From Pedobacter sp. (GTDB taxonomy: Bacteria > Desulfobacterota > Desulfuromonadia > Desulfuromonadales > Syntrophotaleaceae): 64,000 nt of DNA. The stretch is taken from positions 32,001 to 96,000 of the forward strand of contig JBFWJC010000008.1 in NCBI GenBank assembly GCA_050253415.1, given 5' to 3'. Position 1 is the first letter of the stretch; each line of letters begins with the position of its first letter. The translations under genes and the position numbers were made by a program. Of the stretch, positions 30,012 through 54,895 are shown piece after piece. The notes beneath the pieces are model-generated. The model worked only from the letters and a program-made list of their open reading frames with translations. It made no database searches and was not told the DNA's origin.

Positions 30012-32570
30012 TTACAAAGTAACGGACAAGTCGAGAAGTGCTGCAATATTCAACACTCCGACATCATGTCCTTTCCTGCGGACGACTCCAGCAAGGAAAG
30101 GACTGTCGTTTTGCGACAAAATAGCCTCCGTAGCCATTTCTTCACCTTGCGCATTATGAAACAATTGCCCCAAGCGTTCAACCGCAACGGCTACCCTTTG
30201 ATCACCAGAATTACTCAGCAGAACTGTTCCAAAGGACATTTCTGATGCCCCGGAAATCCCCATCCGCGCAGCCACATCAAGCACAGGGACAATCTGGTCT
30301 CGCCACAAGGCCACTCCGCTGATAAAAGATGGGGCACGCGGCACAGGAATCCAATCGGCCCTCTCTATTATCTCCACAACCTCCATGATGTCCAGTGCAT
30401 ATTCATCCCCCCCGAGAAAAAAGGAAATAAAGTTCCCCCTTCCACCTTCTCCGCCAGTTACTGAGGCTATGAAAGAATCATCGTTATCCCGCGAGGAGGC
30501 TGCATCGAATCCACCCGTTACTTGAACAGGCGACTCGGCAATGAACGGCAAGGAAGACTTTACCTCAGGATCCAACCCGTCCAAACAGCCAATTTGCGCT
30601 TGAGGCGGATAAGGTGCCTGGCGTATCAGATAAGCAAGGTCCAGCAACAACACCGGACCGGTACCAACCAATTCAGCAACAGCGGAAAATCCCGGAACCT
30701 GTCGTAACAAAGCGTCAAAGGGACGAATAACCGCCTCCCGTCGCCCCAGCAAGCCCTCAACGATCAGCCCGACCTGCCTGGCGCCGAATCCTACAACCAC
30801 AAGGAAAGGCGCTCCTTCGACGCATGCAGTGGATCCCTTGAAATAATGCCGCAGATCAAGCAATGGCAGAGGCTCCTGACCATCTGACATATGCCCGCTC
30901 TCGGATTCTTTTGCGCAGTTGGTTGCAAAAGGCTTCACACAGCATACACCTTCAAGCGCCATGGCATATGGCCTGTCTGCAACGATGACAACCAGTACCG
31001 ACATGATCGTTTTATGGACAGGCAGCGTTAAAGTCATACAGGTCCCAACACCGGTGCGGGTATCGACCTCGACCATTCCGCAAAGGGAATCAAGCTGGCA
31101 TCGCACCACATCCATACCTATGCCCCGGCCGGAAATCTCCGTAACGTTGGTACAGGTGGAAAAACCGGGCTGAACAAGCAGATCGTAAAGCTGCTGATTC
31201 GACAAAGTTTCCCCTTGCCCAATCATGCCGAGCCCATAAGCCCGGGCTTGAACTTTTTGTAGATCAATGCCACGGCCATCGTCACGAACTTCGATGGCAA
31301 CCTGTCCGCTACGCAGACTGGCTTCAAGAACCAGGGTGCCTTCAGCGGGCTTGCCATACAAGACGCGCTCATCGGGCGGTTCGATGCCGTGATCTATCGC
31401 ATTACGCACCAGATGTAACAGCGGCTCATGCAACCGCTCAAGCACCCCGCGGTCAAGAGGAACGTCATTCCCACGCATGACCAACCGTACACGCTTGCCG
31501 GTCCCGCGCTCTGCCGCCCGCACCACCCGCGTCATACGCTGGAACAAATATCGCACAGGTATCATACGCGCATCGTTAAGGGATCGTTGCAGCCTGAAAA
31601 GATCCCGTTCCATATCCTGAAAAGAGCGTTCAACCACCTCCGTCAATTCAGCATGTTTCTCATCCGTAAACTGCTGAAAATAACGTTTGAGTTGGCCTTG
31701 CCCGAGCATCAGGTTTTTGGAAATTTCCTGCAACTCATCCAGGGCCTTGGATTCTACCCGGATCATCTGCGAGGGGATTGATAATTCTGTCGAGGTCTTT
31801 GATACAGGCTGCCGTGGCGAAACAGCTGTAGCCGTTGGTTTCGCGTCAACCGGTGTAATCAGACGCAGACGCATTCGATATTCTACCGGCAGATGTTTAC
31901 CAAGGTCAGGGCGTATAGATCCACAAAACAGCCAATGAAAGTCGATGCGACCGTTATCTCGAGGCCCTCCGGGAATCGTTGCGAGAAGCTTCCCATGGTT
32001 GCGTAACAGCTGTTCAAACTCAGGCAACGCGGTATCAATCGCAGACAAAGTCAAACAACAACTGATTAAAAAGACATCCTGTCCCACAGCCAGGCAATGA
32101 TGTAATTGCTGGACCTCAAAAACAGTGAGAGAGCGATAAAGATCAGGATCGAGATTGCCAGGTGGTTTCTGCGCCAGGTCTGCAGGGACAAGATCTCCAG
32201 TGCAAACACTCTCCAACAGAGAAATCATCTGTGCACAGCGGGTTTCAGAATCAGATCTCCGATGCACCAACCGGTCCATCAATGTTACCGATTCGTCTAG
32301 CAGCTCAAACAGATGCGCCGTTGCCTGTTGCCGTCCCATGCGGAGATTGTCCAGGCAAGATTCGAGATGATGAGCAAGACTGCTCGCTTGTTGCAGCCCC
32401 ACTGAAGAACTCAGCCCCTTCAATGAATGAAGGCTGCGGAAAAGACTGTCGAGGAGGATGGCATCTAAGGATTTACTGACAAATTGTTCAGTTAATACTT
32501 CCAGATCGCGACGTACAGCCTCGAGCAAATCCTCGGCTTCGCTCACAAATTCAAGATCAGGATCCATCAT
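30012..32570 (-). CDS. cheA: CheA-like histidine kinase with an additional C-terminal CheW domain
   Basis: HPt FRSLHSLKG, HLVRNAIDHGIE, DDGRG, SGRGIGMDVV, P5 domain, then second CheW (FISFFLGGDEYAL..PVPRAPSFISGV). Confidence 0.87.
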   Translation of the reverse strand: MMDPDLEFVSEAEDLLEAVRRDLEVLTEQFVSKSLDAILLDSLFRSLHSLKGLSSSVGLQQASSLAHHLESCLDNLRMGRQQATAHLFELLDESVTLMDRLVHRRSDSETRCAQMISLLESVCTGDLVPADLAQKPPGNLDPDLYRSLTVFEVQQLHHCLAVGQDVFLISCCLTLSAIDTALPEFEQLLRNHGKLLATIPGGPRDNGRIDFHWLFCGSIRPDLGKHLPVEYRMRLRLITPVDAKPTATAVSPRQPVSKTSTELSIPSQMIRVESKALDELQEISKNLMLGQGQLKRYFQQFTDEKHAELTEVVERSFQDMERDLFRLQRSLNDARMIPVRYLFQRMTRVVRAAERGTGKRVRLVMRGNDVPLDRGVLERLHEPLLHLVRNAIDHGIEPPDERVLYGKPAEGTLVLEASLRSGQVAIEVRDDGRGIDLQKVQARAYGLGMIGQGETLSNQQLYDLLVQPGFSTCTNVTEISGRGIGMDVVRCQLDSLCGMVEVDTRTGVGTCMTLTLPVHKTIMSVLVVIVADRPYAMALEGVCCVKPFATNCAKESESGHMSDGQEPLPLLDLRHYFKGSTACVEGAPFLVVVGFGARQVGLIVEGLLGRREAVIRPFDALLRQVPGFSAVAELVGTGPVLLLDLAYLIRQAPYPPQAQIGCLDGLDPEVKSSLPFIAESPVQVTGGFDAASSRDNDDSFIASVTGGEGGRGNFISFFLGGDEYALDIMEVVEIIERADWIPVPRAPSFISGVALWRDQIVPVLDVAARMGISGASEMSFGTVLLSNSGDQRVAVAVERLGQLFHNAQGEEMATEAILSQNDSPFLAGVVRRKGHDVGVLNIAALLDLSVTL

Positions 32571-39257: not shown

Positions 39258-40094
39258 TCAGTATAGCGCCTTAAACCAGACATTCATGCTTTCCTGTCGA
39301 CCACAGATCTGGGTGTTGTTGCGCAGCGTACCGCCAAACCGGTACCCCATGCGGGAAAAGGTAATGTTCATACCGTACGAATAGGCCCTGGCGATGGTGA
39401 ATGCCGTGCGGATGCCATCTGAACGAATCGCTCGCTCCATACTTGCCAGAAGAATCTGAGCCAGCCCCATCCCGCGGAAAGAGGACAGCGTAGCAAAGTC
39501 CGTCATTTCGGCATGCCTTGCTCCCCGATCCATTTCAGCCGAGGCCAAAGCTACCAACCGACCATCGTGCCAGACGCCAAAGTAGCGCACATTATCACGC
39601 ATGGTATCCCGCAGATAACCTGGATCGTGGATAGGAAATGGATAGCTGGCAAAAACCTCTTTGTAGACCGCCGCGGCCGCTTCGACATCTGCTTCAATCA
39701 ATGGCCGCAATTCGGCTCCTTGCGGCAACGCAGGCAACCCGCCATTCGACTGGGTCGCAGCTTTGGCGAGGACATCTTTCACCAACTTCGGCTCACGTTC
39801 AACCGAGCGCTCGGAATGCAGGAACTTGCCCAGCAGCACCCCCTCCTCCCGGCCATGAAACAATTGCGGCACGCGCGCCTCGGCCCGATAACCATTATCC
39901 AGAAAATCCTGACTGACGCTGGCCGGAACCTTGGCAAAAATCTTGGAATATCCTTCGCGAAATGCCAAAGCGTCGAGTTCATCGACAATTTCCGGACAAT
40001 CCGCAGGAGAGATTTTCATAAGATAGATGCGCTCGCTATTTTCACCATGCTGGATCAGGGAACTGCCGATGCGTTCCATGCGATCAATCATCAC
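39258..40094 (-). CDS. ablB: Putative beta-lysine N-acetyltransferase (GNAT)
   Basis: [48 protein letters not shown]; overlaps the aminomutase stop. Confidence 0.88.
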
Positions 40095-41388
40095 TCCTCC
40101 TGTCCATCCGGTCGGTATCCTCCGGCGTCAGGGAAATGGTATCGTCGTGGTCCGACAGCAACTTGACGATGCCGGTCGCCTGGCATTCGTCCGCGCCCTT
40201 GAGCTTGAGCTGAAGGTGGCAATCGTTGCAGCGACGATCGCAGAAAATCGGCTCGTAGCTATGCGGCTCCTGATAGGTAGTGATAACCCCTTCGTAATTT
40301 CGCAACACCACTTTATTCGTGGACAGAGAAATCAGATAGTTCGGATTGAGAGGAATCTTACCGCCGCCGCCCGGCGCATCCACCACGTAAGTGGGGATGG
40401 CAAAACCGCTGGTATGCCCAATGAGATTCTCCATAATTTCAATCCCTTTACCAATGGGCGTACGAAAATGCGCCAGACCTTCGGAAAGATCACACTGGTA
40501 CAGGTAGTAGGGTCGCACCCGATTATCAACCAACCGATGTACCAGCTCCTTGATAATACGCGGGCAATCGTTTACCCCGGCCAACAGCACCGTCTGATTT
40601 CCCAGAGGGAACCCTGCATCAGCCAGCTTGCGCAAAGCGGTTCGTGCCGACGATGTAAGCTCACGAGAGTGATTGAAATGGGTATTGATCCACAAGGGTT
40701 GATGCTTGCGCAGCATGTTGACCAGATCATCGGTAATCCGGCAGGGCAGCACCACTGGCATACGCGTACCGATGCGCACAACCTGAACATGGGGAATACG
40801 CCGCAACTCCGTGAGAATCCAGTCGAGATGATCGTCAGACAACATCAGGGGGTCGCCCCCGGATAACAGCACATCGCGAATCTGGGGCGTTCTGGCAATA
40901 TAATCCAGGCCCTGCAGGATTTCATCCCTGCCCGGGATGGAATCCTGGTCCCCGACCTTACGTTTCCGCGTACAGTGCCGACAATACATCGCACACAGGT
41001 TGCTTACGTGAAACAGAACCCGGTCGGGATAACGATGGGTGATTCCGGGGGCGGGGCTGTCCTTGTCTTCCGCCAAAGGATCCGCCATCTCGCGAGAATC
41101 CGTTTCCAACTCTTGGGGTGCGGGAAATGACTGGATAAAAACCGGATCATTTTGATAATCCGAGAAATCAATAAGAGACAGGTAGTAAGGTGTTATGGCA
41201 AGGGGAAATTTTTCAAGGGTTAAAGCAATGCTCTTACGAAAGTCCTGATCAAACTCGATACCAGCTATACGTTCAAACGTTTTGACATCTTTGATTGCAT
41301 GTTTTACATGCCAGCGCCAATCCTCCCAATTTTTAGTAAAAGTGTCCTCAAAACCGATTTTTTTAGCTATCTTCCTCTCAACTTTCAA
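40084..41388 (-). CDS. ablA: Lysine 2,3-aminomutase (radical SAM/PLP)
   Basis: [39 protein letters not shown]; coupled to ablB. Confidence 0.92.
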
Positions 41389-42223: not shown

Positions 42224-42847
42224 TTACAGAATATGCTTTTTACGGGCAACCGCCACGGCTTCCATGCGATTGTTGACTTCCAGCTTCTTAAAAATTCTTT
42301 GCACGTGCGTTTTGATGGTTTCGATACTGACAAAATTAATCTGGGCTATATTTTTCAATACACGGATTTCGGTCTTGGTCAGGTTATGCTCGCAACTGTC
42401 ACCTTCCTCATCCTGCATTTGGCGCCACTTTATCGCAAGATTCAAAAGATAAGGCGAGTGACATTCTCTTCCCTCAGCAAAATCCTCAATAATCTTTATC
42501 AGTTCATCAATTTTTGTATTTTTTGCGACATAACCGTTGGCTCCTTCGAGCATGGCCTCCTGAACATATTCTTTCTTGGTATAAGTGGACAGCACGATGA
42601 TCTTCAGATCCGGCAGTGTCTTGCGCAACACGCGGATGGCTTCTATACCTGACAACCCCGGCATATCAACATCCATAAGCACAACATCCGGCGGGTTTTC
42701 ATTGATGGCATTGACCGCATCAAAACCGTTATCCGCTTCACCCACAATTTTGATGTGTTGCTTCGACTCGAGATACATACTCAAGCCGATACGCAGAATG
42801 GGATGGTCATCGGCTATAAAAACCGTTACGGGTCTCGTTTCATTCAT
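42224..42847 (-). CDS. NarL/LuxR-family response regulator with apparently shortened HTH
   Basis: IADDHPILR, LMDVDMP, VLST, YVAK; C-terminal ETIKTHVQRIFKKLEVNNRMEAV. Confidence 0.9.
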   Translation of the reverse strand: MNETRPVTVFIADDHPILRIGLSMYLESKQHIKIVGEADNGFDAVNAINENPPDVVLMDVDMPGLSGIEAIRVLRKTLPDLKIIVLSTYTKKEYVQEAMLEGANGYVAKNTKIDELIKIIEDFAEGRECHSPYLLNLAIKWRQMQDEEGDSCEHNLTKTEIRVLKNIAQINFVSIETIKTHVQRIFKKLEVNNRMEAVAVARKKHIL

Positions 42848-44507
42848 AGTCGGTCTCCCTTGGCACACTATATTCCTGACCGCTTGTAACAGGAATGCGA
42901 AAGCGAAACCGCCCACCCGTTACCTCAGCCCCGGATTCATCAGCATAGGGCGATTCCACCCATATTTCTCCGCCATGAGCTTCAACAACCATTTTGCTGA
43001 ATGTGAGCCCCAATCCGACGCCACGACGTTCGTTGCCACGCTGTACACTCGTCGTATAAAACTTCTCAAAAATAAGGGCCTGTTTCTCTTTGTCTATACC
43101 TTGCCCCTGGTCGTCAATGGTCACAAGTATACAATCCCCATGTTCCGGATCGGACAATTGCTCGGCCTTCACAAAAATTTCGCCTTCGGGAGGGCTGAAA
43201 CGAATGGCGTTTTCCAGAAGATTGACACAGGTACGCTGAATACGACTCCAATCCGCCAACATCCGCACACCGGCACGACCGGGTTGGAAGGATATGTTGA
43301 TTTTCTTGTCGTCGGCTGAAAATCCAACATGCCTGATACTCTCGACAAGCGTGGAATCCATGTCGCCGGGCACCTGGCAAAGATTAACACCCGCACATTC
43401 ATCCAGAAAAATATCAAGAAAGTTCGAAACCATACCGGATAACTTGTGAGTCGAATTCAGGGCCAGGGACACGAGATCGCCGCCCCTGTCGTTAAGAGAG
43501 CCAAGATGCCCGTCCAGCATCAACTCCAGCACCCTCTGGATGGACAAAATCGGGTTGCCCATGTCGTGGGTCAGCATGCCGATCAGGTCCTCCTTCATCT
43601 TTTCTACTTTTTTTTCCTGGGTTACGTCCCGCAATACGGTCACATACCCCATAGCTTCCCGCTTGGTGAGAAAGATTTCCTGAAAGGAGGCATGGGCGTA
43701 AAAAATCTGGCCGTCGGGTTTCAGAACTTCGAAAACCGGCTGAGCGTCAATAATTTCCTGGTGATTTTTGCCAACCAGGTACTCTTTAAACGCTTCCGGC
43801 CTGGCAAAAAGAGAGAATATCGGTTGCCCGACAATAGAGGAGGGTTCACGGCCGAACATTTTGACCGTTGCTTTATTGATCAGAGTAACAATGCCGCCTA
43901 CATCGGTCGATATGATGGCCTCGGAAACGCTGTTGATGATGTTATGCAGATTTTTCTGATAGGCCTTTTGCGACAGATACTTCTGAATAGCCAGAGAGCT
44001 GATGGTTTTAGCGATGGTGCACATGAGGTTCACCGCTGACTGCAGTCTCTGATAACTCATCACCGGCACTTCATGCAATGCCCTGAGGTATCCCGCAATA
44101 TCTTCGACACCGATTCGCTTGGCTGCGTCAATCGCTTCTTCAACGGAGAGGGGTTTTGTCAGGACCTGCCCCATCACCAACGTTGCGACATGATACCCCT
44201 CTACAATAATCGGGGTAGCGCTATCCATGAGACCGGCATTCAGACACTTATAAATAAAGGGCTTACCTATTTTCTTCCCTTCTTCACCACCGAACCTGTC
44301 GCTGGCATAGCACTTTGCCCGCCCTTCCGGGGTCGAACGGCAATAATCTTTACACAGTCGCGAAAAATTGTGCTCGCGCGTGATCGGCTGCCCGGTCAGA
44401 TCGACCAAAACCGAAGCAACACGCGTCGCCTTGGTAAAGTCCCGAACGATCTCCTCCAGTACTTCCTTTTCAATCAGATCGAGGATTTGTATCTGCTGAC
44501 TCGCCAT
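42840..44507 (-). CDS. PocR-PAS sensor histidine kinase (no TM segments seen)
   Basis: PocR motifs NFSRLC..CRSTPEGRAKCYASD, YKCLNAGLMD..PIIVEG..GQV; PAS; THDMGNP; NLLENAIRF, DQGQGI, GVGLGL. Confidence 0.88.
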   Translation of the reverse strand: MASQQIQILDLIEKEVLEEIVRDFTKATRVASVLVDLTGQPITREHNFSRLCKDYCRSTPEGRAKCYASDRFGGEEGKKIGKPFIYKCLNAGLMDSATPIIVEGYHVATLVMGQVLTKPLSVEEAIDAAKRIGVEDIAGYLRALHEVPVMSYQRLQSAVNLMCTIAKTISSLAIQKYLSQKAYQKNLHNIINSVSEAIISTDVGGIVTLINKATVKMFGREPSSIVGQPIFSLFARPEAFKEYLVGKNHQEIIDAQPVFEVLKPDGQIFYAHASFQEIFLTKREAMGYVTVLRDVTQEKKVEKMKEDLIGMLTHDMGNPILSIQRVLELMLDGHLGSLNDRGGDLVSLALNSTHKLSGMVSNFLDIFLDECAGVNLCQVPGDMDSTLVESIRHVGFSADDKKINISFQPGRAGVRMLADWSRIQRTCVNLLENAIRFSPPEGEIFVKAEQLSDPEHGDCILVTIDDQGQGIDKEKQALIFEKFYTTSVQRGNERRGVGLGLTFSKMVVEAHGGEIWVESPYADESGAEVTGGRFRFRIPVTSGQEYSVPRETDYE

Positions 44508-44625
44508 TCCAGCTCCTTAGTCCGCCAACTGAAGGTTTGACACCCCGCCGGCCAGATATCTTCCCATGAGTTATTGATAGCATGAGACCCACTACCGGCC
44601 AAAGTAAAATGTCGTTTACAGCATA

Positions 44626-44725
44626 GGGGTGACGCCGATTATCACTATTTCGGGGGACAAAATGAAGGATTGCGGGGGACAACCTGGAGGGGGTGACATG
44701 CAAGTTCACTATTACGGGGGACAAA
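44626..44725. repeat. Direct-repeat array in the divergent promoter (putative operator sites)
   Basis: GGGGTGAC-N8-TCACTATTWCGGGGGACAAA at 44626-44661 and 44690-44725; third CGGGGGACAA at 44673-44682. Confidence 0.8.
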
Positions 44726-44899
44726 TATAGCATCTTGTAGCGATTGTTATTCAGCCCTCCCTAACATACAAATAAGGTGCGCGCAAAAAGAAACGACCCG
44801 AATTCAGACTTTGCAAAGAAAGACGTACGTCAACCAATTATTTTATTTAATTCGCTACGTTCGTATCACATTTAAGGGCATCCAGGAAAGGGAAAAACC

Positions 44900-45865
44900 A
44901 TGGCTCCTTGGTCTGTAGACACGTTATTACTTTGCTTTGGTGGCGGTATCGTCGGTGCAGCTCTCGGCGGACTGTTTTCTTTCAGCATTTGCGGCCTGAT
45001 TGTTCTGGCCGGTTGCTTCGTCATCTTTAACGGCGGTTCAGAGTTCCTGCTCATGCAGGTCGGACTGGGTCCCCTTTTTGGGCCTCACACCGGCGGCTTT
45101 GTAGCCGGAGTCGCTGCCGTAGCCTACGCTGCCGGTATCAAAAAAAACCTTCCGAGCGGCAGCGGCAAGGACATCCTTTCGCCGCTTATCGGTACCTCCT
45201 GGGATGTACTGCTGGTCGGAGGGGTGTTCGCGGTCTTTGGTCATGTGCTGCTGCAACTGCTGGTCAAAATTCCGTTTGTCAACATGGCGGACTGCATCGC
45301 ACTTACAGTCGTCATCACCCAGTGTGTTGCGCGCCTGCTGTTCTTGAAAGAAATGCCATGGGGTAATGGCGCATCAATTCGCGCCCATGGCTTCCTGGGC
45401 ACCAACGATGGAGCACTGTCCTGGGTCCCATGGATGGCACAACCTGCCCGCCTGATCGTGTTCAGCTTTGGCGTCGGCCTGTTATCGGCCGCTATGGCCA
45501 TGGGCACCAAAAACGTCCTCGACCCCATGGTTGTTCAAGGCACCGTCTCGGCTACCGGCGCCTTCGTGGTGCCCCTGATCTTTGCCTGGGGCATTGCCGC
45601 CATCAGCCTGATCGGTCTGCAGTTGGGTACCGGCGAAATCCAGAAGTTACCTGTCTGGCACTGCCAGGCCATCCTCAGCGCCCTGGCTTTCCTGTTGTTC
45701 AACTCCCTGGTGTTGGCAGCCATTGTCGGCATCCTGGCCGGTCTGCTGCAGGAACTGGTAGCACGAGCCATGTGGAACCACGGGTCTACCCATATCGATC
45801 CGCCAGCCGGCGCCATTGCAGTCGGCACCCTGATCCTCAACCTGGCACACGGCTTCATTAAGTAA
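44900..45865 (+). CDS. Uncharacterised polytopic membrane protein (putative small-solute channel/transporter)
   Basis: About 9-10 Gly/Ala-rich hydrophobic segments; motifs FGPHTGGF, GKDI, HIDPPA; first gene of GRE operon. Confidence 0.75.
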   Translation: MAPWSVDTLLLCFGGGIVGAALGGLFSFSICGLIVLAGCFVIFNGGSEFLLMQVGLGPLFGPHTGGFVAGVAAVAYAAGIKKNLPSGSGKDILSPLIGTSWDVLLVGGVFAVFGHVLLQLLVKIPFVNMADCIALTVVITQCVARLLFLKEMPWGNGASIRAHGFLGTNDGALSWVPWMAQPARLIVFSFGVGLLSAAMAMGTKNVLDPMVVQGTVSATGAFVVPLIFAWGIAAISLIGLQLGTGEIQKLPVWHCQAILSALAFLLFNSLVLAAIVGILAGLLQELVARAMWNHGSTHIDPPAGAIAVGTLILNLAHGFIK

Positions 45866-45998
45866 CTCGGAAATACCCGGCGGGCAACCCCGCTAAACCG
45901 ATTATCCGATTTTTGCAGCACATACACAGCATCCGGCAGAGCACATAGTGCCTGCCAGATAAAAACAGACATCTCAAAAACCCTCAAAAGGAGGAAAC

Positions 45999-48398
45999 AT
46001 GTCTACCAAAGTAAAAGTTAACCCTGTCGTCGCTACTCAGGGCCCCACCGAACGCGTCGAGAAAATCAAGGCTAGATTCCTGGCTACAACTCCGGAAATC
46101 TGCGCCGAACGTGCCAAGCTCATCACCGAATCCTACAAGGAGACCGAAGGCCTGCCCATGACTACCCGGCGCGCCAAAGCGTTGGAAAAAATCCTCATGG
46201 GGATGTCGATCTACATTGAAGACGATGAATTGATTGTAGGCAACCAGTGCAGCATGCCCCGCTCCGCTCCCGTTTATCCTGAATTCTCCTGCGAGTGGCT
46301 GGAAGCCGAACTTGACCGTCTTGCCAAACGCACGGCCGATGTCTTCCTGATCAGCGAAGACGTCAAGCAGACTTTGCGTGAAGATGTTTTCCCCTACTGG
46401 AAAGGCAAAACCAACCAGGAGATCGCCACGGCATTGATGAAGCAGGAAGCCATCGATGCAGGCAACGCGGTTGTCTACACCGTCGGCAACTACTACTTCA
46501 ACGGCGTCGGTCACATTTCGGCTAACTACGGCAAGGTCATGAGCCAGGGCCTCAACGCCGTTATCGCCGAAGCCGAAGCAGCCAAGGCAAAATTCGACTA
46601 CGCCGATGCACACCAAATGAAGTCGCTGCACTTTCTGGAGTCGACCATCATCGCCAACAAGGCTGTCATCGCTTTCGCCAATCGGTATGCCGATGAAGCC
46701 GATCGTCTGGCCGCGGCCGAGAAGGACGCCGCCCGTAAAGCCGAACTGCTTGAGATCGCCCGCATCTGCCGCAAGGTGCCTGCGCAACCGGCAGAAACCT
46801 TCCAGGAAGCAGTACAGGCATTCTGGTTCATCCACCTGGTCATCCAGCTCGAATCGAACGGTCACTCCATCTCGCCGATGCGTTTCGACCAGTACTGCTA
46901 CCCCTTCTATGCAGCAAGCAAAGACTCCATGTCGGACGCAAAGGTCCAGGAACTGCTCGACCTGATGTGGCTCAAGCTCAACGGCCTGAACAAGGTTCGC
47001 GACGAAAACTCCACCATGGCTTTTGCCGGCTACCCGATGTTCATGAACATCATTGTCGGCGGCGTGGACCGCGAAGGCAAAGACGCCACCAACGAACTGT
47101 CGCTGATGCTTCTGCAGGCAGCGGCCAACACCAAACTCTATGCCCCTTCCCTGTCGGTTCGTATCCACGAAGGGACTGCGGATGAGCTGTACATGAAGGC
47201 CGCCGAAGTCAGCCGCATGGGTCTTGGCGTTCCGGCTTTCTTCAACGACCGCACCATCATTCCGGCCCTTCTGTCCCGTGGCCTGACCCTGGAAGACGCG
47301 CGCGACTACGGCATCATCGGTTGCGTCGAGCCCCAGGTCGGCGGCAAGACCGAAGGCTGGCATGACGCCGCCTTCTTCAACATGGCCAAGGTTATCGAGC
47401 TTACCCTCAATAACGGCTACGACAAGCGCACTGCCATGCAGGTTGGTCCCCAGACCGGCGCCGTTACCGAAATGAAGTCTTTCGACGACGTTATGGCCGC
47501 CTATACCAAGCAAATGGAATACTTCGTTGGCTTGATGTGCCACGCCGACAACATGGTTGATCTGGCCCATGGTCAAAATGTGCCCCTGCCCTTCCTTTCC
47601 AGCCTGGTTGAAGACTGCATCGGTCGCGGCAAGTCGCTGCAGGAAGGTGGCGCCATCTACAACTTCAGCGGCCCGCAAGGCGTTGGCGTCGCAAACGCCG
47701 GGGATGCCCTGACCGCTATCAAGAAGCTGTGCTTCGATGAAAAGGTCATCAGCCTGCCGGAACTGAAAGAGGTTCTCGACAAGGACTTCGAAGGCGCTGA
47801 AAACATCCGCCAGATGCTCGTCAACCGTGCTCCCAAATATGGCAACGACGATGACTACGCGGATGAAATCGCCGTCGAATCGGCCAACATCTACTGCCGC
47901 GAAGTCAACAAGTACCACAACCCCCGTGGCGGTCAGTTCCAGCCCGGTCTCTACCCGGCATCTGCCAACGTACCTTTTGGTGGCGTGGTTGAGGCAACCC
48001 CGGACGGCCGCAAAAAAGGCACTCCTCTGGCCGACGGCGTTTCCCCCATCGGAGGTTTCGATATCTCCGGTCCGACCGCAACGGTTAACTCCGTCGCCAA
48101 GCTCGACCATGAAGTCACCTCCAACGGCACCCTGCTCAACCAGAAGTTCCATCCCAACGCCGTGAAGGGTGAAGAAGGTCTGCGTAACCTTATCGCCGTT
48201 ACCGAAACCTACTTCAAAAATGGCGGGTTCCATGTGCAGTACAACGTCATCGACCGGAAAACCCTGGAGAAAGCCCAGGAAAAACCGGAAGAATTCGCCA
48301 GCCTGGTGGTTCGCGTAGCCGGCTACAGCGCCTTCTTTACCGCGCTGGATAAATCTCTGCAGGATGACATCATGTCCCGCACCGAGCAGGTCTTCTAA
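45999..48398 (+). CDS. Glycyl radical enzyme, B12-independent glycerol/1,2-propanediol dehydratase clade
   Basis: IGCVEP (C442/E444), RVAGYS (G775), NGVGH, SNGHS, GWHD, GLYP; AGGAGG RBS. Confidence 0.9.
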   Translation: MSTKVKVNPVVATQGPTERVEKIKARFLATTPEICAERAKLITESYKETEGLPMTTRRAKALEKILMGMSIYIEDDELIVGNQCSMPRSAPVYPEFSCEWLEAELDRLAKRTADVFLISEDVKQTLREDVFPYWKGKTNQEIATALMKQEAIDAGNAVVYTVGNYYFNGVGHISANYGKVMSQGLNAVIAEAEAAKAKFDYADAHQMKSLHFLESTIIANKAVIAFANRYADEADRLAAAEKDAARKAELLEIARICRKVPAQPAETFQEAVQAFWFIHLVIQLESNGHSISPMRFDQYCYPFYAASKDSMSDAKVQELLDLMWLKLNGLNKVRDENSTMAFAGYPMFMNIIVGGVDREGKDATNELSLMLLQAAANTKLYAPSLSVRIHEGTADELYMKAAEVSRMGLGVPAFFNDRTIIPALLSRGLTLEDARDYGIIGCVEPQVGGKTEGWHDAAFFNMAKVIELTLNNGYDKRTAMQVGPQTGAVTEMKSFDDVMAAYTKQMEYFVGLMCHADNMVDLAHGQNVPLPFLSSLVEDCIGRGKSLQEGGAIYNFSGPQGVGVANAGDALTAIKKLCFDEKVISLPELKEVLDKDFEGAENIRQMLVNRAPKYGNDDDYADEIAVESANIYCREVNKYHNPRGGQFQPGLYPASANVPFGGVVEATPDGRKKGTPLADGVSPIGGFDISGPTATVNSVAKLDHEVTSNGTLLNQKFHPNAVKGEEGLRNLIAVTETYFKNGGFHVQYNVIDRKTLEKAQEKPEEFASLVVRVAGYSAFFTALDKSLQDDIMSRTEQVF

Positions 48399-48422
48399 GC
48401 TGCTTATCTTGTTGTAACACTT

Positions 48423-48452
48423 GGGGGCCGGATACATCCGGATCCGGCCCCC
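48423..48452 (+). other. GC-rich intercistronic hairpin between GRE and activase
   Basis: GGGGGCCGGAT-N8-ATCCGGCCCCC, 11-bp perfect stem, no U-tract. Confidence 0.75.
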
Positions 48453-48497
48453 GCCCCACCTGGTAATACGGTTAAACCGAACACCTGGAGAACAACC

Positions 48498-49466
48498 ATG
48501 AACTGGAGAGAAAAGGTCCTTGATTTTGACAACATCGGCGATCGTGGCGAAGGGCTGAAGGGATTGATTTTCGATGTTCAGAAGTTCGCTATCCACGATG
48601 GCGGGGGTATCCGCACCAATGTTTTCCTTAAAGGATGCCCGCTGCAATGCCTGTGGTGCTCGAACCCTGAATCCCTGGCATCCAAGCCGGAAATCACCTT
48701 CGTGACCAACAACTGCATTGGCTGTGGCAAATGCCTGGAGGTATGTCCGGCAGGAGCCATCCGTCAAGGAGAAACAGCCGGTGAAGACATCATCATCGAC
48801 CGGGAGCGCTGCACCCTGTGCGGCCAGTGTGCAAAACACTGCTACGCAGGAGCCATCAACATTATCGGACGGTATGTTTCCGTTCCCGAACTGATGCAGA
48901 TCATCGAGCGTGACCGCAAATTTTATGAGCAGAGCGGCGGCGGAGTCACCTTTTCAGGTGGGGAACCAACCGCACAGCCGGAATTCCTTAAAGCGGCCCT
49001 GGCAGAAATCCAGAAACGCGGTATTCACACTGCCATAGAAACCAGTTCACTTTTACCCTGGGATATTTACGTTTCGATCCTGAAGCACGTCGACCTGGTG
49101 CTGAGCGACATCAAGCACATGGACGATGCCGAGCATAAGCGCCTCACCGGGGTTTCCAACCAACTGATTCTCGATAATATTCGCAACATCTCCAAGCTCG
49201 GTATCCCGGTAAAGATTCGTCTGCCATTGATTCCCGGCATCAACGATTCCGACCGTAATCTCGAAGCCACCGCCGAATTTGTGGAGCAATTGAGCAATGT
49301 ACAGTCGCTCGACATTCTGCCCTATCACCGTCTGGGTGAAATGAAATACCGACAACTGGATCTCAGTTACCCCTTAAAGGGTGTGGAATCGCCAACGGTT
49401 GAACACGTTGAAGAGCGAATCCGCGCTCTCCGGGAAAGGGGATTAAACATTTCCGTCGGCGGGTAG
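48498..49466 (+). CDS. Glycyl-radical enzyme activase with ferredoxin-like insertion
   Basis: HDGGGIRT..FLKGCPLQCLWCSNPES, CIGCGKCLEVCP and CTLCGQCAKHC, GGVTFSGGEP, LPYHRLG. Confidence 0.95.
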   Translation: MNWREKVLDFDNIGDRGEGLKGLIFDVQKFAIHDGGGIRTNVFLKGCPLQCLWCSNPESLASKPEITFVTNNCIGCGKCLEVCPAGAIRQGETAGEDIIIDRERCTLCGQCAKHCYAGAINIIGRYVSVPELMQIIERDRKFYEQSGGGVTFSGGEPTAQPEFLKAALAEIQKRGIHTAIETSSLLPWDIYVSILKHVDLVLSDIKHMDDAEHKRLTGVSNQLILDNIRNISKLGIPVKIRLPLIPGINDSDRNLEATAEFVEQLSNVQSLDILPYHRLGEMKYRQLDLSYPLKGVESPTVEHVEERIRALRERGLNISVGG

Positions 49467-49561: not shown

Positions 49562-50824
49562 ATGCCAACGTTCAAGCAACTATTCTGTGTTCTTGCCGCA
49601 GCCGCGACCCTGTTCGCGGCCTGCCCTGCTGATGCCGCTTTCGTTGTCGGAGGCAGTGACGGCTGGTCGTTCAGCACCGACGGCAACGTCAACCTGTTTT
49701 TGCGCTACACCACGGCCGACCAACGGCCGGACAATGTTCACAGCGCCTTTTATACCCTGTCCGATGACCAGGATTCCTTCCGTACCCGCAGCGGCTTTTT
49801 GCCCGGCGTACTGGCCTTCAACATCAAGGCACCGACCATGGGTGGACTCGACATGGCGGCACGGGTCGGCTTTTACCCCAATCCCCAAAATGGTAATACC
49901 AAAAACAGCTTCAGCGGACAGATCGACCTGCGCGAGATCTTCTTCACTGTTGACGGCAACTTCGGCCAGTTCCTGGTCGGTAAAGCCTTCAGCTTGTTCC
50001 AGGGCCAGAACTGCCTGACCGGCATGTCGGTCTACGGATTCGGCATCGAAGGTGCTGTGTCCGGCGGCGGCGCAACCCTTGGCAACATCGGTTATGGCTA
50101 CATCTACCCCCAGTTCAATGCCCAATTGCGTTACACCACCCCCGATATGAACGGCTTTAAACTGGCCGTTGCGATTCACGACCCCTCCCAGATTAATGGC
50201 TCGGGCGTCGGCCTCGATTCAAACGTTTACAATCCGTCCGCCGTTGAAACCAATACCCCGCGCTGGGAAGGCGAACTCTCCTATGCCGGCATCTATGCCG
50301 ACGGTGACGGCACCTTCAAATCCTGGGTCAGCGGTCTGTACCAGAATGCCAAATTCGCCAAAGACAGCGCGTTTGATGGCGACGTGACCGCCTGGGGTGT
50401 AGCCGGTGGCGTACAGGTCGGCTACAAAGCCTACGAGTTGGTCGCTTCGGCCTTCACCGGCGAGGCCCTTGGTTCAACTCTGATGCTTGACTACGACTCT
50501 CTCGATTTTACCGGCGAAGAGCGTGAAGGTTACGGTTACCTGCTGCAAGGTACCTACACCTGGGATAACCGTTTCGGGAAAACCAAATTCGGCATCTGCT
50601 ACGGCGCCAACCGCATGGAGGAAACCTCCGCCGAAAAGGTGGTCCGTGCCGCAACCGATAATGGCGAATTGAAACAACAAGACGTCATCACCGTGGGCGT
50701 TTTCCACGATATCAATCCTCACCTCAAATTGGTGCTGGAATACAATCGTGCCAATGTCGAATGGTTCAACGGCGGCAAACAGGAAGTCGACATCATCGGC
50801 CTGGGTACCTTCTTCATGTGGTAA
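49562..50824 (+). CDS. Outer-membrane porin
   Basis: Signal peptide (..PADA/AF), alternating beta-strand pattern, C-terminal aromatic LGTFFMW. Confidence 0.82.
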   Translation: MPTFKQLFCVLAAAATLFAACPADAAFVVGGSDGWSFSTDGNVNLFLRYTTADQRPDNVHSAFYTLSDDQDSFRTRSGFLPGVLAFNIKAPTMGGLDMAARVGFYPNPQNGNTKNSFSGQIDLREIFFTVDGNFGQFLVGKAFSLFQGQNCLTGMSVYGFGIEGAVSGGGATLGNIGYGYIYPQFNAQLRYTTPDMNGFKLAVAIHDPSQINGSGVGLDSNVYNPSAVETNTPRWEGELSYAGIYADGDGTFKSWVSGLYQNAKFAKDSAFDGDVTAWGVAGGVQVGYKAYELVASAFTGEALGSTLMLDYDSLDFTGEEREGYGYLLQGTYTWDNRFGKTKFGICYGANRMEETSAEKVVRAATDNGELKQQDVITVGVFHDINPHLKLVLEYNRANVEWFNGGKQEVDIIGLGTFFMW

Positions 50825-50884: not shown

Positions 50885-51175
50885 TCTCGCGGTGCAAGGA
50901 AGCCACAATTCACCCGATATGCCTGCATCAGAAGCTCACGGACTCGAAGTCCCCCCACGCGTCATTGAGCTTATCGACACCGAAGAAAAACGCCCTAAAG
51001 GTGTTCCCTTTGTTAAGCAGATTACGAAAACCGGTGCCAGGACCATGAGGATGCCGATAGTCTTTTTAACCAAGGAGAGTGATTTGCTCACCAAAAAGCC
51101 AACCTCTGACGGATATTCAGCCAACAGCTTGACCTTGTTATGAACGGGTCGGGGTTCAGCCAACGAGGAAAGTCC

Positions 51176-51844
51176 ATGGACGATAAATTACCTGACGCCC
51201 CGATAAATTCGTTAACACGCGATGGCCTGAAACACTTTAAAAACGGTGATTGCGACAAGGCCTTAACCGCATTTGGTGAAGCAGCTTCTCTGTGCAGGCA
51301 AACGGGCAATGTTGCCGGCGAGGCACATCAGCAAATGCTTGTCGCGGATATCTATGGGGCCACCAAGCAGCTGGAAAAGGCACTGGAAGCCTACCATCGG
51401 GTTATTTCCCTGCTTATCGATATCGGCGACAAGGCCGGTATCGCTGCCGTACAGAATAACATCGGACTGCTGTTGGCACGCCTGCAGCGGTTTGACGAAG
51501 CCATGATGGTTTTCAAAGATGCCGAGCAGAATTTTATTGCCTGCAGTGAACCGGAGCGTGCCGCAGAACAATTGGCCAACATGGGGTCGGTCAGCCGTGA
51601 TCGTCAAGATTACCTTCGGGCCCTTGATTACTATCGTCAGGCTTTGCAAGTGTTTGAGAAATTGGATCAACTCAGTAGCGTCGCCGACCAGCACGCCAAT
51701 ATCGGTTACATTCTTGCCCTGACGAACGATAAAGATGCCGGTCTGACCCATTTTGATAGCGCCCTGGATCTATACAAAAAGTTCGATAATGCCGCCAAGA
51801 TTACGCAGACGCTAAAAAACATCGAGCTTCTTCAGGCTGAGTAA
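51176..51844 (+). CDS. Tetratricopeptide repeat protein
   Basis: Repeated NNIG/ANMG/ANIG..AL..Y..AL helical units; GAGGA RBS. Confidence 0.85.
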   Translation: MDDKLPDAPINSLTRDGLKHFKNGDCDKALTAFGEAASLCRQTGNVAGEAHQQMLVADIYGATKQLEKALEAYHRVISLLIDIGDKAGIAAVQNNIGLLLARLQRFDEAMMVFKDAEQNFIACSEPERAAEQLANMGSVSRDRQDYLRALDYYRQALQVFEKLDQLSSVADQHANIGYILALTNDKDAGLTHFDSALDLYKKFDNAAKITQTLKNIELLQAE

Positions 51845-52117
51845 AAAATCACCGACGCAAGCTCTGTTTATCATCAGGCCAAAGATCAATTTTCCGGAGA
51901 TGTCTGGCCTTTTTCAGCGGTTCAGTGATCCGGGCAACAGAATCACTATCGGCCTGGCAGAACCTATTGACGATGCCCTGATCCCCACACGACGGAGACA
52001 TGGCCCTGGTCGCTGGTTGTGGCACCAGAACAATATCCCATAATCCAGGTGGCAAACGCGAACCCGGCCTGCGATAACCTGCCACCCTGTTTGAAGAACC
52101 GCCTAAAAGGATGGATC

Positions 52118-52744
52118 ATGAAACCGAATTGTTCCGCTAAAAGGCTGATAAATAACCGTCAGTCACTGACTGATCGAATTATGACACTGGAATTGGCCAT
52201 GTTCCTGAGCGTTCCCACCAGCCAGCCCTACAGCTGTCAGGAAGATCCGCAAAGTTTCAAAGTACATCGTCAAGCCCAGTTCGCAGCCTGGTCCGTCACT
52301 ACCCTTGAGAGTTATTATTACGATCTCCAGGCAGCTAAAGATGCGGGGCGCAACCTGCTGGCCATCAAGTATGCCCGCATGGATAATCTCGTGCCCTGCG
52401 TCAATTTCATCCCGCGGATCGCGTCCATTGTCCATCTGGCAATAACTGGGCAACAACGGTTTATAGATGCCTATCCTCGCCTGATGCAGGGCGGGCGATC
52501 CTTGACCACCTCAACGGACGATGACGGTCTTACTTCCTTTGAAACCTATTTGCGCTGTGAGCTCGAAACCTATTCCGAAACGACCCTGGGGTTGTTATTG
52601 GCTGACATCCGGGGATTGGAGCAGTCCGGCTCGAGTCTTTCCGAAGCCGTCTATCGCTGTCTTGCACAACAGTGGGGCTTTTACTCGCTGGAAGCTCTGG
52701 AAGCAAGCCTGCAGCAGAAAGGTCCCGCTACAGGTAGTCTTTGA
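52118..52744 (+). CDS. DUF4125-like protein
   Basis: GRNLLAIKYARM and TSFETYLRCELETYS, recalled as DUF4125 motifs. Confidence 0.7.
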   Translation: MKPNCSAKRLINNRQSLTDRIMTLELAMFLSVPTSQPYSCQEDPQSFKVHRQAQFAAWSVTTLESYYYDLQAAKDAGRNLLAIKYARMDNLVPCVNFIPRIASIVHLAITGQQRFIDAYPRLMQGGRSLTTSTDDDGLTSFETYLRCELETYSETTLGLLLADIRGLEQSGSSLSEAVYRCLAQQWGFYSLEALEASLQQKGPATGSL

Positions 52745-53521: not shown

Positions 53522-54895
53522 TCAGTCCTGCAGACACTGCAACAAACCCATGGCCCATTGGCAGGCACCGCAAGGCTCCGGGTTGGTAAAACAGTCCACA
53601 TCGAAATCTTCTTCCTGCACCAGGTCGCAAGGGGCCACACCGCAATTGGAACAGTACGGATAATCGAATTCAACCACATGTTCGCGGAACGTGCGGAATT
53701 CTTCACTGCGCCAGATATCGAGCAGCGGTTGTCGGTGGACATTGCCAAATACCTTGGGTTTAACCAGTCGATCCCAGTCATTGATATAACAACGATAATG
53801 ATGCCAGAGGTAATAACAAGGGTGCACATCGCCATCCCAGGAGATGAACGCCGAGCCTTTCGTGACAAAGGGACACTCACGTTCGTAACGCGGAGTCAAA
53901 GCCGGCAATTTAATTTCAATCCCCATTTCATCGGCCACCCGTTGCGCTTGGTCAAACACATCCTTGACTTCGGCAAGCAGAGCTTCGTCCCGACGAATCA
54001 GCTGCATGACATCCATGAAGATATCTTTTTGACGTGCCTCGGCTTTCATGCGATTAACCAATTGATTTACTTTACGCACTTGCGGATCTACCGCACGAGG
54101 CAGGACCTGTTCCTTCTCCCAGACCATATAATCGTAGACCCTGATATCGAATCCTTCGGCAGACAATTGCCGCTTCCATCGCTCGTAAATCTCAACCGCC
54201 GCATCGATGGAATTATCGTAAGTGATCTGGTTGATCCCGGAAATGTCGTAAGGGAGGGCATGACTGACAATAATAAAATCGGCTCCGCGCTGCGCAACCC
54301 AGCGCACGGTATCCGGCAACTGGTGAAAGTTTTCACGCATGGCAACGAATTCGGTCCCGATTTTGAGCCGGCTGTTCGGCTGCCTCTGGCGGGCTTCGTT
54401 CAGCATCCTGAAGGCCCGGTCCATGTCACTGATATCCTCACCTTCGCGCACCTTGCTGAAGGTCTCGGGCTTGACACCGTCCACCGACAGGCAGATACGG
54501 TCGAGACCGGCGTCAACCAGATCCCGCGCCCAATTACGATCGATCAACAAACCGTTGGACTGGAACCCGATCCAGGCGTCATCGGGCATCAACCGGCGAG
54601 CCCGCTTCACCCATTCGAGGATATGAGGATGCATCAGCGGTTCGCCGATACCGTTGAGAACCAACGATTCGAGATGGGGGAAAACAGGTTCCAGGGCTGC
54701 AAAGGTCTTCTGCGACATATCCGCATCGATGACCTTGCTGTCCGCCGCCTGCTTGACGCACATGGGACAGCGCAAATTGCAGAAGGTCGTACTTTCAACA
54801 AACAACTTGCTGGGATATGGACGCAACGCCGCGGACTCAAGACTGGCGGAAGCCTCTTCAGATCTGTTACTATTCATTGTTGTCTCGTCCTCCAA
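53522..54895 (-). CDS. Radical SAM/SPASM-domain protein (deltaproteobacterial putative maturase type)
   Basis: CNLRCPMC, GIGEPL, SNG; SPASM ECPF..GDVHPC..FGNV..CSNCGVAPC..CFTNPEPCGAC. Confidence 0.87.
   Translation of the reverse strand: MEDETTMNSNRSEEASASLESAALRPYPSKLFVESTTFCNLRCPMCVKQAADSKVIDADMSQKTFAALEPVFPHLESLVLNGIGEPLMHPHILEWVKRARRLMPDDAWIGFQSNGLLIDRNWARDLVDAGLDRICLSVDGVKPETFSKVREGEDISDMDRAFRMLNEARQRQPNSRLKIGTEFVAMRENFHQLPDTVRWVAQRGADFIIVSHALPYDISGINQITYDNSIDAAVEIYERWKRQLSAEGFDIRVYDYMVWEKEQVLPRAVDPQVRKVNQLVNRMKAEARQKDIFMDVMQLIRRDEALLAEVKDVFDQAQRVADEMGIEIKLPALTPRYERECPFVTKGSAFISWDGDVHPCYYLWHHYRCYINDWDRLVKPKVFGNVHRQPLLDIWRSEEFRTFREHVVEFDYPYCSNCGVAPCDLVQEEDFDVDCFTNPEPCGACQWAMGLLQCLQD

Follow-up and report, generated by a model that had tools for sequence, protein, structure and literature searches.

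An oxygen-sensitive glycyl radical enzyme (GRE) encoded in a Syntrophotaleaceae genome raises the question of which diol it dehydrates. Its gene lies at 45999-48398 of the 64,000-nucleotide stretch analysed here (positions 32,001 to 96,000 of contig JBFWJC010000008.1, assembly GCA_050253415.1), which is called the window below. A reading made from the sequence only had proposed that the enzyme resembles glycerol dehydratase (GD) but lacks the residues that go with glycerol. In this study, the gene product was compared with characterised GDs and 1,2-propanediol dehydratases (PDs), with its relatives in sequence databases and with a second copy of its gene cassette in the same genome. The enzyme belongs to a conserved subtype with a third kind of substrate pocket.

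The glycyl radical enzyme and its catalytic residues

The forward-strand frame at 45999-48398 is free of stop codons and is translated into a protein of 799 amino acids (aa). According to Pfam, it consists of a PFL-like domain (PF02901, 851 bits) and a Gly_radical domain (PF01228, 119 bits). The PFL-like barrel, the C-terminal glycyl-radical domain, the Cys loop and an adjacent activase gene of the TIGR02494 type, located 100 nt downstream, place the protein in the GRE superfamily. The motifs GYPMF, GCVE, LYPAS and RVAGY start at residues 344, 441, 651 and 772, respectively. An alignment of 42 sequences has C442, E444 and G775 in every row, and the conservation of H172, H289, S290, D456 and Y652 is at least 90% each. 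The residues C442-V-E444, H172, H289-S290, D456 and Y652 pair one-to-one with those of GD, as in a GRE 1,2-eliminase. According to the available part of a 2026 GRE review, C-O eliminases are recognised by a CXE motif (PMC13450708).

Only the subfamily model TIGR01774 (PFL2-3) of NCBIfam is passed by the protein (849.5 bits against a cut-off of 678.2). None of the equivalog models (HpfG, HpsG, HypD, CutC, PflD-type, IAD, HPAD and PFL) reaches its curated cut-off. The best of these is HpfG with 734 bits against a cut-off of 1000, and the HpfG-like (sulfopropanediol) reading was therefore rejected. A search of the PDB chains gave 37 distinct sequences at E<=0.001, and the top three were 1r8w (C. 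butyricum GD, 1030 bits), 5i2a (Roseburia diol dehydratase, 885 bits) and 9rco (872 bits). The last is the GRM3-type PD of Raoultella planticola, for which the excerpt consulted gives 75% identity to the Rhodopseudomonas palustris enzyme (PMC12756279). The AlphaFold2 model calculated with the 42-sequence alignment has a mean predicted local distance difference test (pLDDT) score of 80.5, and the values fall below 50 at residues 343-346, 439-441, 655-659 and 767-799, that is, at the active site. The translation and the family scores show that 45999-48398 encodes an intact, activase-linked, B12-independent GRE, by sequence of the diol-dehydratase type.

An open frame of 951 aa runs antisense to the entire GRE gene and reaches into the activase gene (window 45984-48839, reverse strand). 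Comparable antisense frames of 719-1000 aa are located opposite GRE genes in three other loci. The 951-aa frame is probably an effect of codon usage and not a gene.

Substrate pocket

The PDB chains were aligned with phmmer, and a Clostridiaceae protein of 787 aa, which matches 1r8w over residues 1-787 (1635 bits), stood in for the C. butyricum GD in a global alignment. The GRE is identical to this protein at 468 of 787 positions (59.5%). H172, H289, S290, C442, E444, D456, Y652 and G775 correspond to H164, H281, S282, C433, E435, D447, Y640 and G763 of GD, whereas F348 and A654 correspond to Y339 and S642. The phmmer alignment agrees, in that GYPMF and LYPAS are paired with GYPMY and LYPSS of the C. 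butyricum GD (1r8w). The same motif pair is GYSLF/LYPVS in the Roseburia PD (5i2a) and GYAVF/IYPVS in the Raoultella GRM3 enzyme (9rco).

Tyr339 and Ser642 reportedly adjoin or hold the C3 hydroxyl group of glycerol in GD (work of LaMattina, 2016, and O'Brien, 2004), and the PD residues Phe344 and Val696 reportedly form the pocket for the methyl group of propanediol (work of LaMattina, 2016). The window enzyme has Phe348 and Ala654 in place of the Tyr/Ser pair of C. butyricum-type GD. Compared with the Phe/Val pair of the GRM3 and GRM5 PDs, Phe is kept and Val is replaced by Ala; the paralogue in the same genome has both Phe and Val.

The sequence-only reading had located all of its residues correctly (H172, H289, S290, F348, C442, E444, D456, Y652, A654 and G775). 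The reference residues that it gave for the C. butyricum enzyme (Tyr339 in YPMY and Ser642 in LYPSS) and for the Roseburia PD (Phe and Val) were confirmed in the 1r8w and 5i2a alignments. The equivalence of F348/A654 to Y339/S642 was borne out by both alignment methods, and the PDB alignments indicate that Phe plus Ala matches neither the Tyr/Ser of GD nor the Phe/Val of PD. Met349, however, was overlooked. This residue is next to F348, at a position where GD, the PDs and the Val-type relatives carry Gln, and it co-varies with A654.

A conserved subtype outside the characterised groups

The relatives were the best 120 representatives of 90%-identity clusters in the protein database, all at least 66% identical to the window GRE. 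Together with the genome's own paralogue, they gave a set of 121 GD-like sequences. The pocket is Phe/Ala in 50 of them (Ala type), Phe/Val in 71 (Val type) and Tyr/Ser in none. At residues 343/349/654, A/M/A is present in 47 sequences and G/Q/V in 69; the other five are mixed. The A/M/A triad is intact in 47 of the 52 sequences having any Ala-type residue. Ala-type sequences carry source names such as Desulfovibrio gilichinskyi, Maridesulfovibrio bastinii, Solidesulfovibrio magneticus, Halodesulfovibrio and Geobacteraceae, among others. A metagenome scan for DNA encoding AGYPMFMN gave 21 loci, and a full GRE with both motifs was recovered in 13 of these. In a phylum-wide search, two of 401 genomes matched at E<=1e-200, one being the genome itself and the other matching at 43% identity; no Desulfovibrio gene contexts came from this search. 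A search of genome contigs gave mostly distant GREs among the matches listed, which included close relatives in three loci.

Quick maximum-likelihood trees (LG+G4, with Shimodaira-Hasegawa-like approximate likelihood ratio test, SH-aLRT, support only) were calculated from 40 of the 120 database proteins, hand-picked across the pocket types, the family loci, 15 Clostridiaceae genes and three outgroups. The search that supplied the Clostridiaceae genes scored 286 genomes and had matches in 35 of them at E<=1e-220, and the rows for the named C. butyricum GD and the Rahnella grpM product were taken from plasmid records. The window GRE is located inside a clade of 47 rows (SH-aLRT 100). Its sister clade (support 96) contains the C. 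butyricum GD, the GRM3-type PD (Rahnella grpM) and Clostridiaceae forms, and no grouping of the window GRE with the C. butyricum GD was seen in the tree. The Tyr/Gln/Ser GDs, including the named C. butyricum enzyme, form a single clade of five rows (support 100) within a Phe background, and all five rows are Tyr/Gln/Ser. These results show that A343/F348/M349/A654 is a distinct conserved subtype, phylogenetically outside both characterised groups.

The Val-type paralogues of Syntrophotalea are sister to the Syntrophotalea Ala group (support 99), and the Desulfovibrio-like Ala group lies outside. The approximately unbiased (AU) test rejects a single Met349 group (p-AU 0.019), a group chosen after inspection of the tree. 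Thus, the pocket was switched more than once, or the genes are mosaic. By sliding-window identity, the four subgroups are nearly equidistant (70-75%), with hints of mosaicism. The history may be one of convergence, reversion or gene conversion; a repeated switch and mosaicism would both point to selection on the pocket. Seven positions (160, 279, 349, 513, 516, 567 and 654) part both Ala groups from both Val groups. They track the pocket type on any history, which argues that the difference was selected.

The doubt that the sequence-only reading had cast on a 'glycerol dehydratase' label was justified. The Pfam scan of open reading frames selected from the 64-kb window, each 100 aa or longer, detected no gene for dhaT, glycerol dehydrogenase or dihydroxyacetone (DHA) kinase. 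Because the pocket does not match, the clade is separate, no equivalog is reached and the locus lacks the glycerol dehydrogenase, DhaKLM and Fe-ADH (iron-containing alcohol dehydrogenase) genes that accompany the C. butyricum gene, the name derives from homology alone.

Another pocket variant was observed in three Clostridiaceae genomes. Its motifs GYPLFQN/LYPAAIN correspond to Phe, Gln and Ala-Ala. In both contexts fetched, the gene is located in a four-gene operon with a PocR-AraC regulator, an Fe-ADH and the activase.

A paralogous cassette in the same genome

The genome (4.1 Mb, 18 contigs, 100% complete) holds two further GREs. One is encoded at contig C2:587656-590037, is 74% identical to the window GRE and has a PD-like Phe/Gln/Val pocket, with G343/Q349/V654 and F160, Q279, L513, S516 and V567. 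Its cassette duplicates all six parts of the window cassette, namely the PocR sensor kinase (39% identity), the LuxR regulator, the DUF7973 membrane protein (70%), the GRE, the activase (54%) and the porin (52%). We infer that the two paralogues act on different diols. A search for the microcompartment shell family PF00936 gave no match in the genome, and the control matched in two of 14 genomes. The clade of the window GRE is free of microcompartment association and presumably under the regulation of PocR sensors.

The third GRE is choline trimethylamine-lyase CutC (contig C1:1263663-1266008; 9595-12027 of locus L005), which is 37% identical to the window GRE. Its scores are 1580 bits for TIGR04394 (cut-off 1050) and 1502 bits for 9f3w. 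Its neighbours encode an Alginate_exp-type porin, a DeoR regulator, an APH-family kinase and an EamA transporter.

A further cluster at C1:1364000-1383900 contains paralogues of the membrane protein, the porin and a radical S-adenosylmethionine (SAM) maturase together with two Fe-ADH genes. A CoA-acylating dehydrogenase of the methylmalonate-semialdehyde type is also encoded there. The Fe-ADH, dehydrogenase, channel and porin genes resemble the 1,3-propanediol cluster of Pelobacter carbinolicus, as described in the excerpts of PMC3543383 available here. An aldehyde:ferredoxin oxidoreductase gene in this cluster is apparently truncated; it lies between two IS30 transposase genes with near-identical family scores.

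Related genomes and Syntrophotalea carbinolica

A search of 17 genomes from the same family gave a GRE match at E<=1e-100 in 11. Types were assigned from the motifs. The Ala type is present in eight genomes, including the window's own, and the Val type in six; both types occur in five of the 17. S. acetylenica carries both. The cassette gene order is kept in the family loci fetched.

The S. carbinolica genome has two GRE matches only at this threshold. One is of the Ala type; an exact look-up identified it as GenBank ABA88643.1, 'glycerol dehydratase [Syntrophotalea carbinolica DSM 2380]'. This protein is a 92% identical orthologue in the same 90% cluster as the window GRE and has the same A/M/A pocket. 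The other is CutC (TIGR04394 1586 bits against a cut-off of 1050). According to the excerpts of PMC3543383, the P. carbinolicus cluster consists of Pcar_1398 (channel), Pcar_1397 ('glycerol dehydratase'), Pcar_1396 (activase), Pcar_1395 (outer-membrane protein) and Pcar_1394 (radical SAM protein), and the name of Pcar_1397 is based on 57% identity to the C. butyricum enzyme. The same excerpts state that the organism grows by disproportionation of 1,2-ethanediol, that its genome is without a B12 diol dehydratase, that some strains use glycerol or 1,2-propanediol and that strains disproportionate glycerol to 1,3-propanediol and 3-hydroxypropanoate (PMC3543383).

The second GRE of that genome, Pcar_0937, was guessed in the same excerpts to be the 1,2-ethanediol dehydratase (PMC3543383). 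This assignment was rejected here, as the second GRE is CutC by its TIGR04394 score. This leaves the Ala type as the sole diol-dehydratase-like GRE detected in the S. carbinolica genome, and thus as the only candidate found for ethylene-glycol dehydration in that organism. A full-text literature search gave no other paper mentioning Pcar_1397, and our literature searches turned up no characterisation of GRE diol dehydratases from Desulfovibrio, Pelobacter or Syntrophotalea. The available part of the 2026 review counts six C-O eliminases, none of them for ethylene glycol or butanediol (PMC13450708).

Gene contexts in other organisms were also compared. In five Desulfovibrio-like metagenome loci, an HbpS-like gene precedes the GRE and activase genes in four, a PocR kinase gene is present in all five, and a sigma-54 regulator gene in four. 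A GDPD/TRAP set, an aldehyde dehydrogenase and a molybdenum aldehyde oxidoreductase were each confined to one kind of locus. Next to the C. butyricum GD gene, in turn, are genes for glycerol dehydrogenase, DhaKLM, a PocR sensor and an Fe-ADH, and next to the Rahnella PD gene those for a shell protein, an aldehyde dehydrogenase and PduF.

Proposed reaction and substrate

By analogy with the family, the radical SAM activase would put the radical on G775, from which it would pass to C442. C442 would then abstract a hydrogen atom from C1 of the 1,2-diol, and E444 and H172 would assist the loss of the C2 hydroxyl group to give the aldehyde. The diol is presumably taken up via the porin and the DUF7973 membrane protein of the cassette, and the PocR sensor kinase and LuxR regulator encoded beside the operon presumably activate it.

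We tentatively propose that the Ala type is a general short-chain diol dehydratase, acting on ethylene glycol and/or glycerol, and that the Val paralogue is a propanediol specialist. The probability that we assign to this proposal is roughly 0.45. The Ala type would perhaps act on 1,2-propanediol as well. In its favour, the catalytic set is complete and equivalent to that of GD, the activase gene is adjacent, and the large subunit of the B12 diol dehydratase was found in none of five genomes, the window's included, in a search without positive control. The conserved subtype, the seven type-linked positions, the repeated switch or mosaicism, the duplicate cassette, the presence of both types in five family genomes, the lack of shell genes, and the GRE inventory and reported physiology of S. 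carbinolica also speak for it. Fe-ADH genes are present elsewhere in the genome, in the cluster with a channel, a porin and the methylmalonate-semialdehyde-type dehydrogenase.

Several points weigh against this proposal. Ala is smaller than Val, which is unexpected for a smaller substrate such as ethylene glycol, and Met349 would raise the hydrophobicity of the pocket, so that a bulkier apolar substituent would fit better. Both hydrogen-bond donors that reportedly serve the glycerol C3 hydroxyl group are lost in the A/M/A pocket. Genes for DhaT, glycerol dehydrogenase and DHA kinase are missing from the window locus, unlike that of C. butyricum. The five Desulfovibrio-like loci have no recurrent substrate-specific enzyme, and these contexts indicate no substrate. 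The search for the B12 diol dehydratase was without positive control, as the family matched none of 14 control genomes. The physiology is that of related named species and not of the window's own organism. Finally, it could be regulation or the preferred enantiomer, and not the substrate, that distinguishes the paralogues.

This last point leads to the possibility that the enzyme is a plain PD in which the change from Val to Ala is tolerated, the paralogues being set apart by their regulation, their affinity or the enantiomer that they prefer. One option, which goes back to reported work on Roseburia, is that (R)-1,2-propanediol would be admitted by Ala654 and the (S) form would be the substrate of the Val type. 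F348 is common to all PDs, the catalytic residues are identical, and PocR sensors are known from propanediol regulation, as the family name says. Single-site intermediates (A/Q/A, A/M/V and G/Q/A) exist, so that the changes are individually viable. Moreover, a P. carbinolicus strain uses 1,2-propanediol though the type-strain genome has the Ala subtype only (PMC3543383, excerpts). Against these points, the genome already has a PD-like Phe/Gln/Val pocket in its paralogous cassette, and the maintenance of two complete cassettes in five genomes, with sensors of just 39% identity, would be costly if the substrates were equal. The triad is also kept in nearly all sequences that have any part of it, and the type was switched more than once. 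We consider a plain PD somewhat unlikely. A true GD, which would bind the C3 hydroxyl group via water or other residues instead of Tyr and Ser, overlaps with our proposal. It agrees with the best PDB match, the GenBank and UniRef name of the orthologue, the glycerol disproportionation by P. carbinolicus strains (PMC3543383, excerpts) and the Fe-ADH/aldehyde dehydrogenase cluster with its paralogous channel and porin; Ala also leaves room that Val does not. However, apolar residues replace both of the residues that reportedly bind the C3 hydroxyl group, the enzyme is outside the GD clade, and the glycerol genes seen in C. butyricum are lacking in the locus. A true GD is thus unlikely in our estimate.

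The sequence-only reading had suggested a hydrophobic and slightly roomier pocket for 1,2-propanediol or a larger or branched vicinal diol. This suggestion was not confirmed, and it is not the most likely reading. In the case of a larger diol, 1,2-butanediol, 2,3-butanediol or another C3-substituted 1,2-diol would occupy the space freed by Ala654 beside the apolar Met349. Ala in place of Val means two methyl groups fewer at the site that tells glycerol enzymes from propanediol enzymes, Met in place of Gln means a loss of polarity, and smaller residues are linked to the type at two further positions (A567 for Val and A516 for Ser). On the other hand, residue 349 adjoins 348 and may point away from the pocket, and 1,2-butanediol is not known to have an abundant source in nature. 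We regard such a larger substrate as distinctly improbable. A more far-reaching idea is that the Ala type is the O2-sensitive, B12-independent ethylene-glycol dehydratase of Pelobacter/Syntrophotalea, perhaps also cleaving the terminal unit of glycol ethers. It would then be the 'PEG acetaldehyde lyase' (PEG, polyethylene glycol), an activity reportedly described from Pelobacter venetianus in the 1980s-90s, and a seventh C-O-cleaving GRE eliminase. At present, this is a long shot.

The conserved Phe/Ala subtype, the paralogous cassette with its PD-like pocket, the placement in a sister clade and the position as sole ethylene-glycol candidate found in S. carbinolica are new. Database naming of GRE diol dehydratases follows similarity to one Clostridium enzyme, and the third pocket type now appears in a large conserved subtype of Desulfuromonadales, Desulfovibrio-like bacteria and others. 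The substrates of the Ala/Val pair would reveal the residues that govern substrate choice and would correct or confirm many annotations. They would probably also disclose which enzyme is responsible for the B12-independent fermentation of ethylene glycol by Pelobacter-type bacteria, a matter of relevance to glycol and antifreeze waste and possibly to PEG breakdown.

Genes of the cassette and its surroundings

The features of the locus are summarized in Table 1.

Table 1. Features of the GRE cassette and its flanking genes in the window
Feature	Coordinates	Strand	Evidence
LuxR/NarL-type response regulator	42224..42916	-	Pfam Response_reg 100.9 bits, GerE 34.1 bits
Sensor histidine kinase: N-terminal PocR, PAS, HisKA, HATPase	42840..44507	-	Pfam PocR 172.5 bits, PAS, HisKA, HATPase_c
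Divergent intergenic control region, three CGGGGGACAA copies at 44651-44724	44508..44899	.	Sequence reading
DUF7973 multi-pass membrane protein	44900..45865	+	Precomputed PF25928, source names; local Pfam scan without match
GRE, vicinal-diol dehydratase type, subtype A343/F348/M349/A654	45999..48398	+	Translation, Pfam, NCBIfam, PDB alignment, trees
GRE activating enzyme, radical SAM, CX3CX2C and two ferredoxin-like clusters	48498..49466	+	TIGR02494, Pfam Radical_SAM, Fer4
Outer-membrane porin-like protein, signal peptide, aromatic C-terminus	49562..50824	+	Sequence reading, gene position, paralogues
TPR protein	51140..51844	+	Pfam
DUF4125 protein	52019..52744	+	Pfam
Radical SAM/SPASM metalloenzyme maturase, putative	53522..54895	-	TIGR04311 629.4 bits vs cut-off 400

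The PocR kinase gene is divergent from the GRE operon. Orthologues of the response regulator (79-83% identity) adjoin the PocR kinase gene in four other loci. The response-regulator start listed in Table 1 is probably too early, because the gene overlaps the kinase gene by 77 nt. In the intergenic region, the 10-mer CGGGGGACAA is present in three of its eight copies in the 4.1-Mb genome (both strands), all three within 75 bp, and two of them are parts of longer 21-bp direct repeats (CACTATTxCGGGGGACAAA). It is not conserved in the orthologous loci checked, so that an operator role is only a guess, and it was not found in the paralogous cassette. Promoter-like matches in this region are no more frequent than in shuffled sequences.

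The precomputed DUF7973 assignment holds for the membrane protein and for all 120 relatives listed for it. This protein is a putative inner-membrane diol channel; the P. carbinolicus homologue Pcar_1398 is predicted as a channel in the excerpts of PMC3543383. The genome has four DUF7973 paralogues and four porin paralogues, and each set has one member in the paralogous GRE cassette and another in the Fe-ADH cluster. The activase scores 369.8 bits with TIGR02494 against a cut-off of 174. The porin-like protein gave no match in Pfam or NCBIfam.

Genes for TPR and DUF4125 proteins recur beside Ala-type, Val-type and CutC cassettes. Beside the CutC locus (5444-7662 of L005) and in four other loci, the two flank a third gene of about 310 aa, which is DUF4037 where scanned (L005) and is absent in the window. 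The set could be an unrecognised GRE accessory module. The radical SAM maturase gene is kept beside the cassette in four loci, and, although it goes with the cluster, it probably does not belong to the dehydratase itself. Further upstream, a lysine 2,3-aminomutase gene adjoins a GNAT acetyltransferase gene (window 39258-41388, reverse strand), which we take to be the usual pair for synthesis of the osmolyte N-epsilon-acetyl-beta-lysine.

Comparison with known systems

The C. butyricum enzyme DhaB1 (1R8W/1R9D) shares with the window GRE the fold, the length class, the catalytic residues, the adjacent activase and an upstream sensor with a PocR domain. In the window GRE, however, Tyr339 is replaced by Phe, Gln340 by Met and Ser642 by Ala, and the enzyme is located in a different clade. 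A dedicated membrane protein and porin belong to the window cassette, whose regulator is of the LuxR type where that of C. butyricum is of the AraC type.

The PD of Roseburia inulinivorans (5I2A/5I2G, GRM5) and the GRM3 enzymes of Raoultella planticola and Rhodopseudomonas palustris (9RCO-9RCR) have the Phe and the catalytic residues in common with the window GRE, but have Val and Gln at the sites of its Ala and Met, respectively. In these PDs, about 50-60 aa are inserted behind the position of query residue 597. The 5i2a alignment breaks at query residues 597/599 against chain residues 591/642, which indicates that this insertion is absent from the window GRE. These PDs are encoded in microcompartment loci (the Rahnella locus; PMC6325248, in the part available), whereas the window genome has no shell gene. 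The R. palustris enzyme does not use glycerol according to an excerpt of PMC5311937.

A further close system is the Pcar_1397/ABA88643.1 cluster, which has the same order of channel, GRE, activase, porin and radical SAM genes. The porin-like gene of the window holds the position of Pcar_1395, and the maturase gene that of Pcar_1394 (PMC3543383, excerpts). No material difference was observed between this cluster and that of the window.

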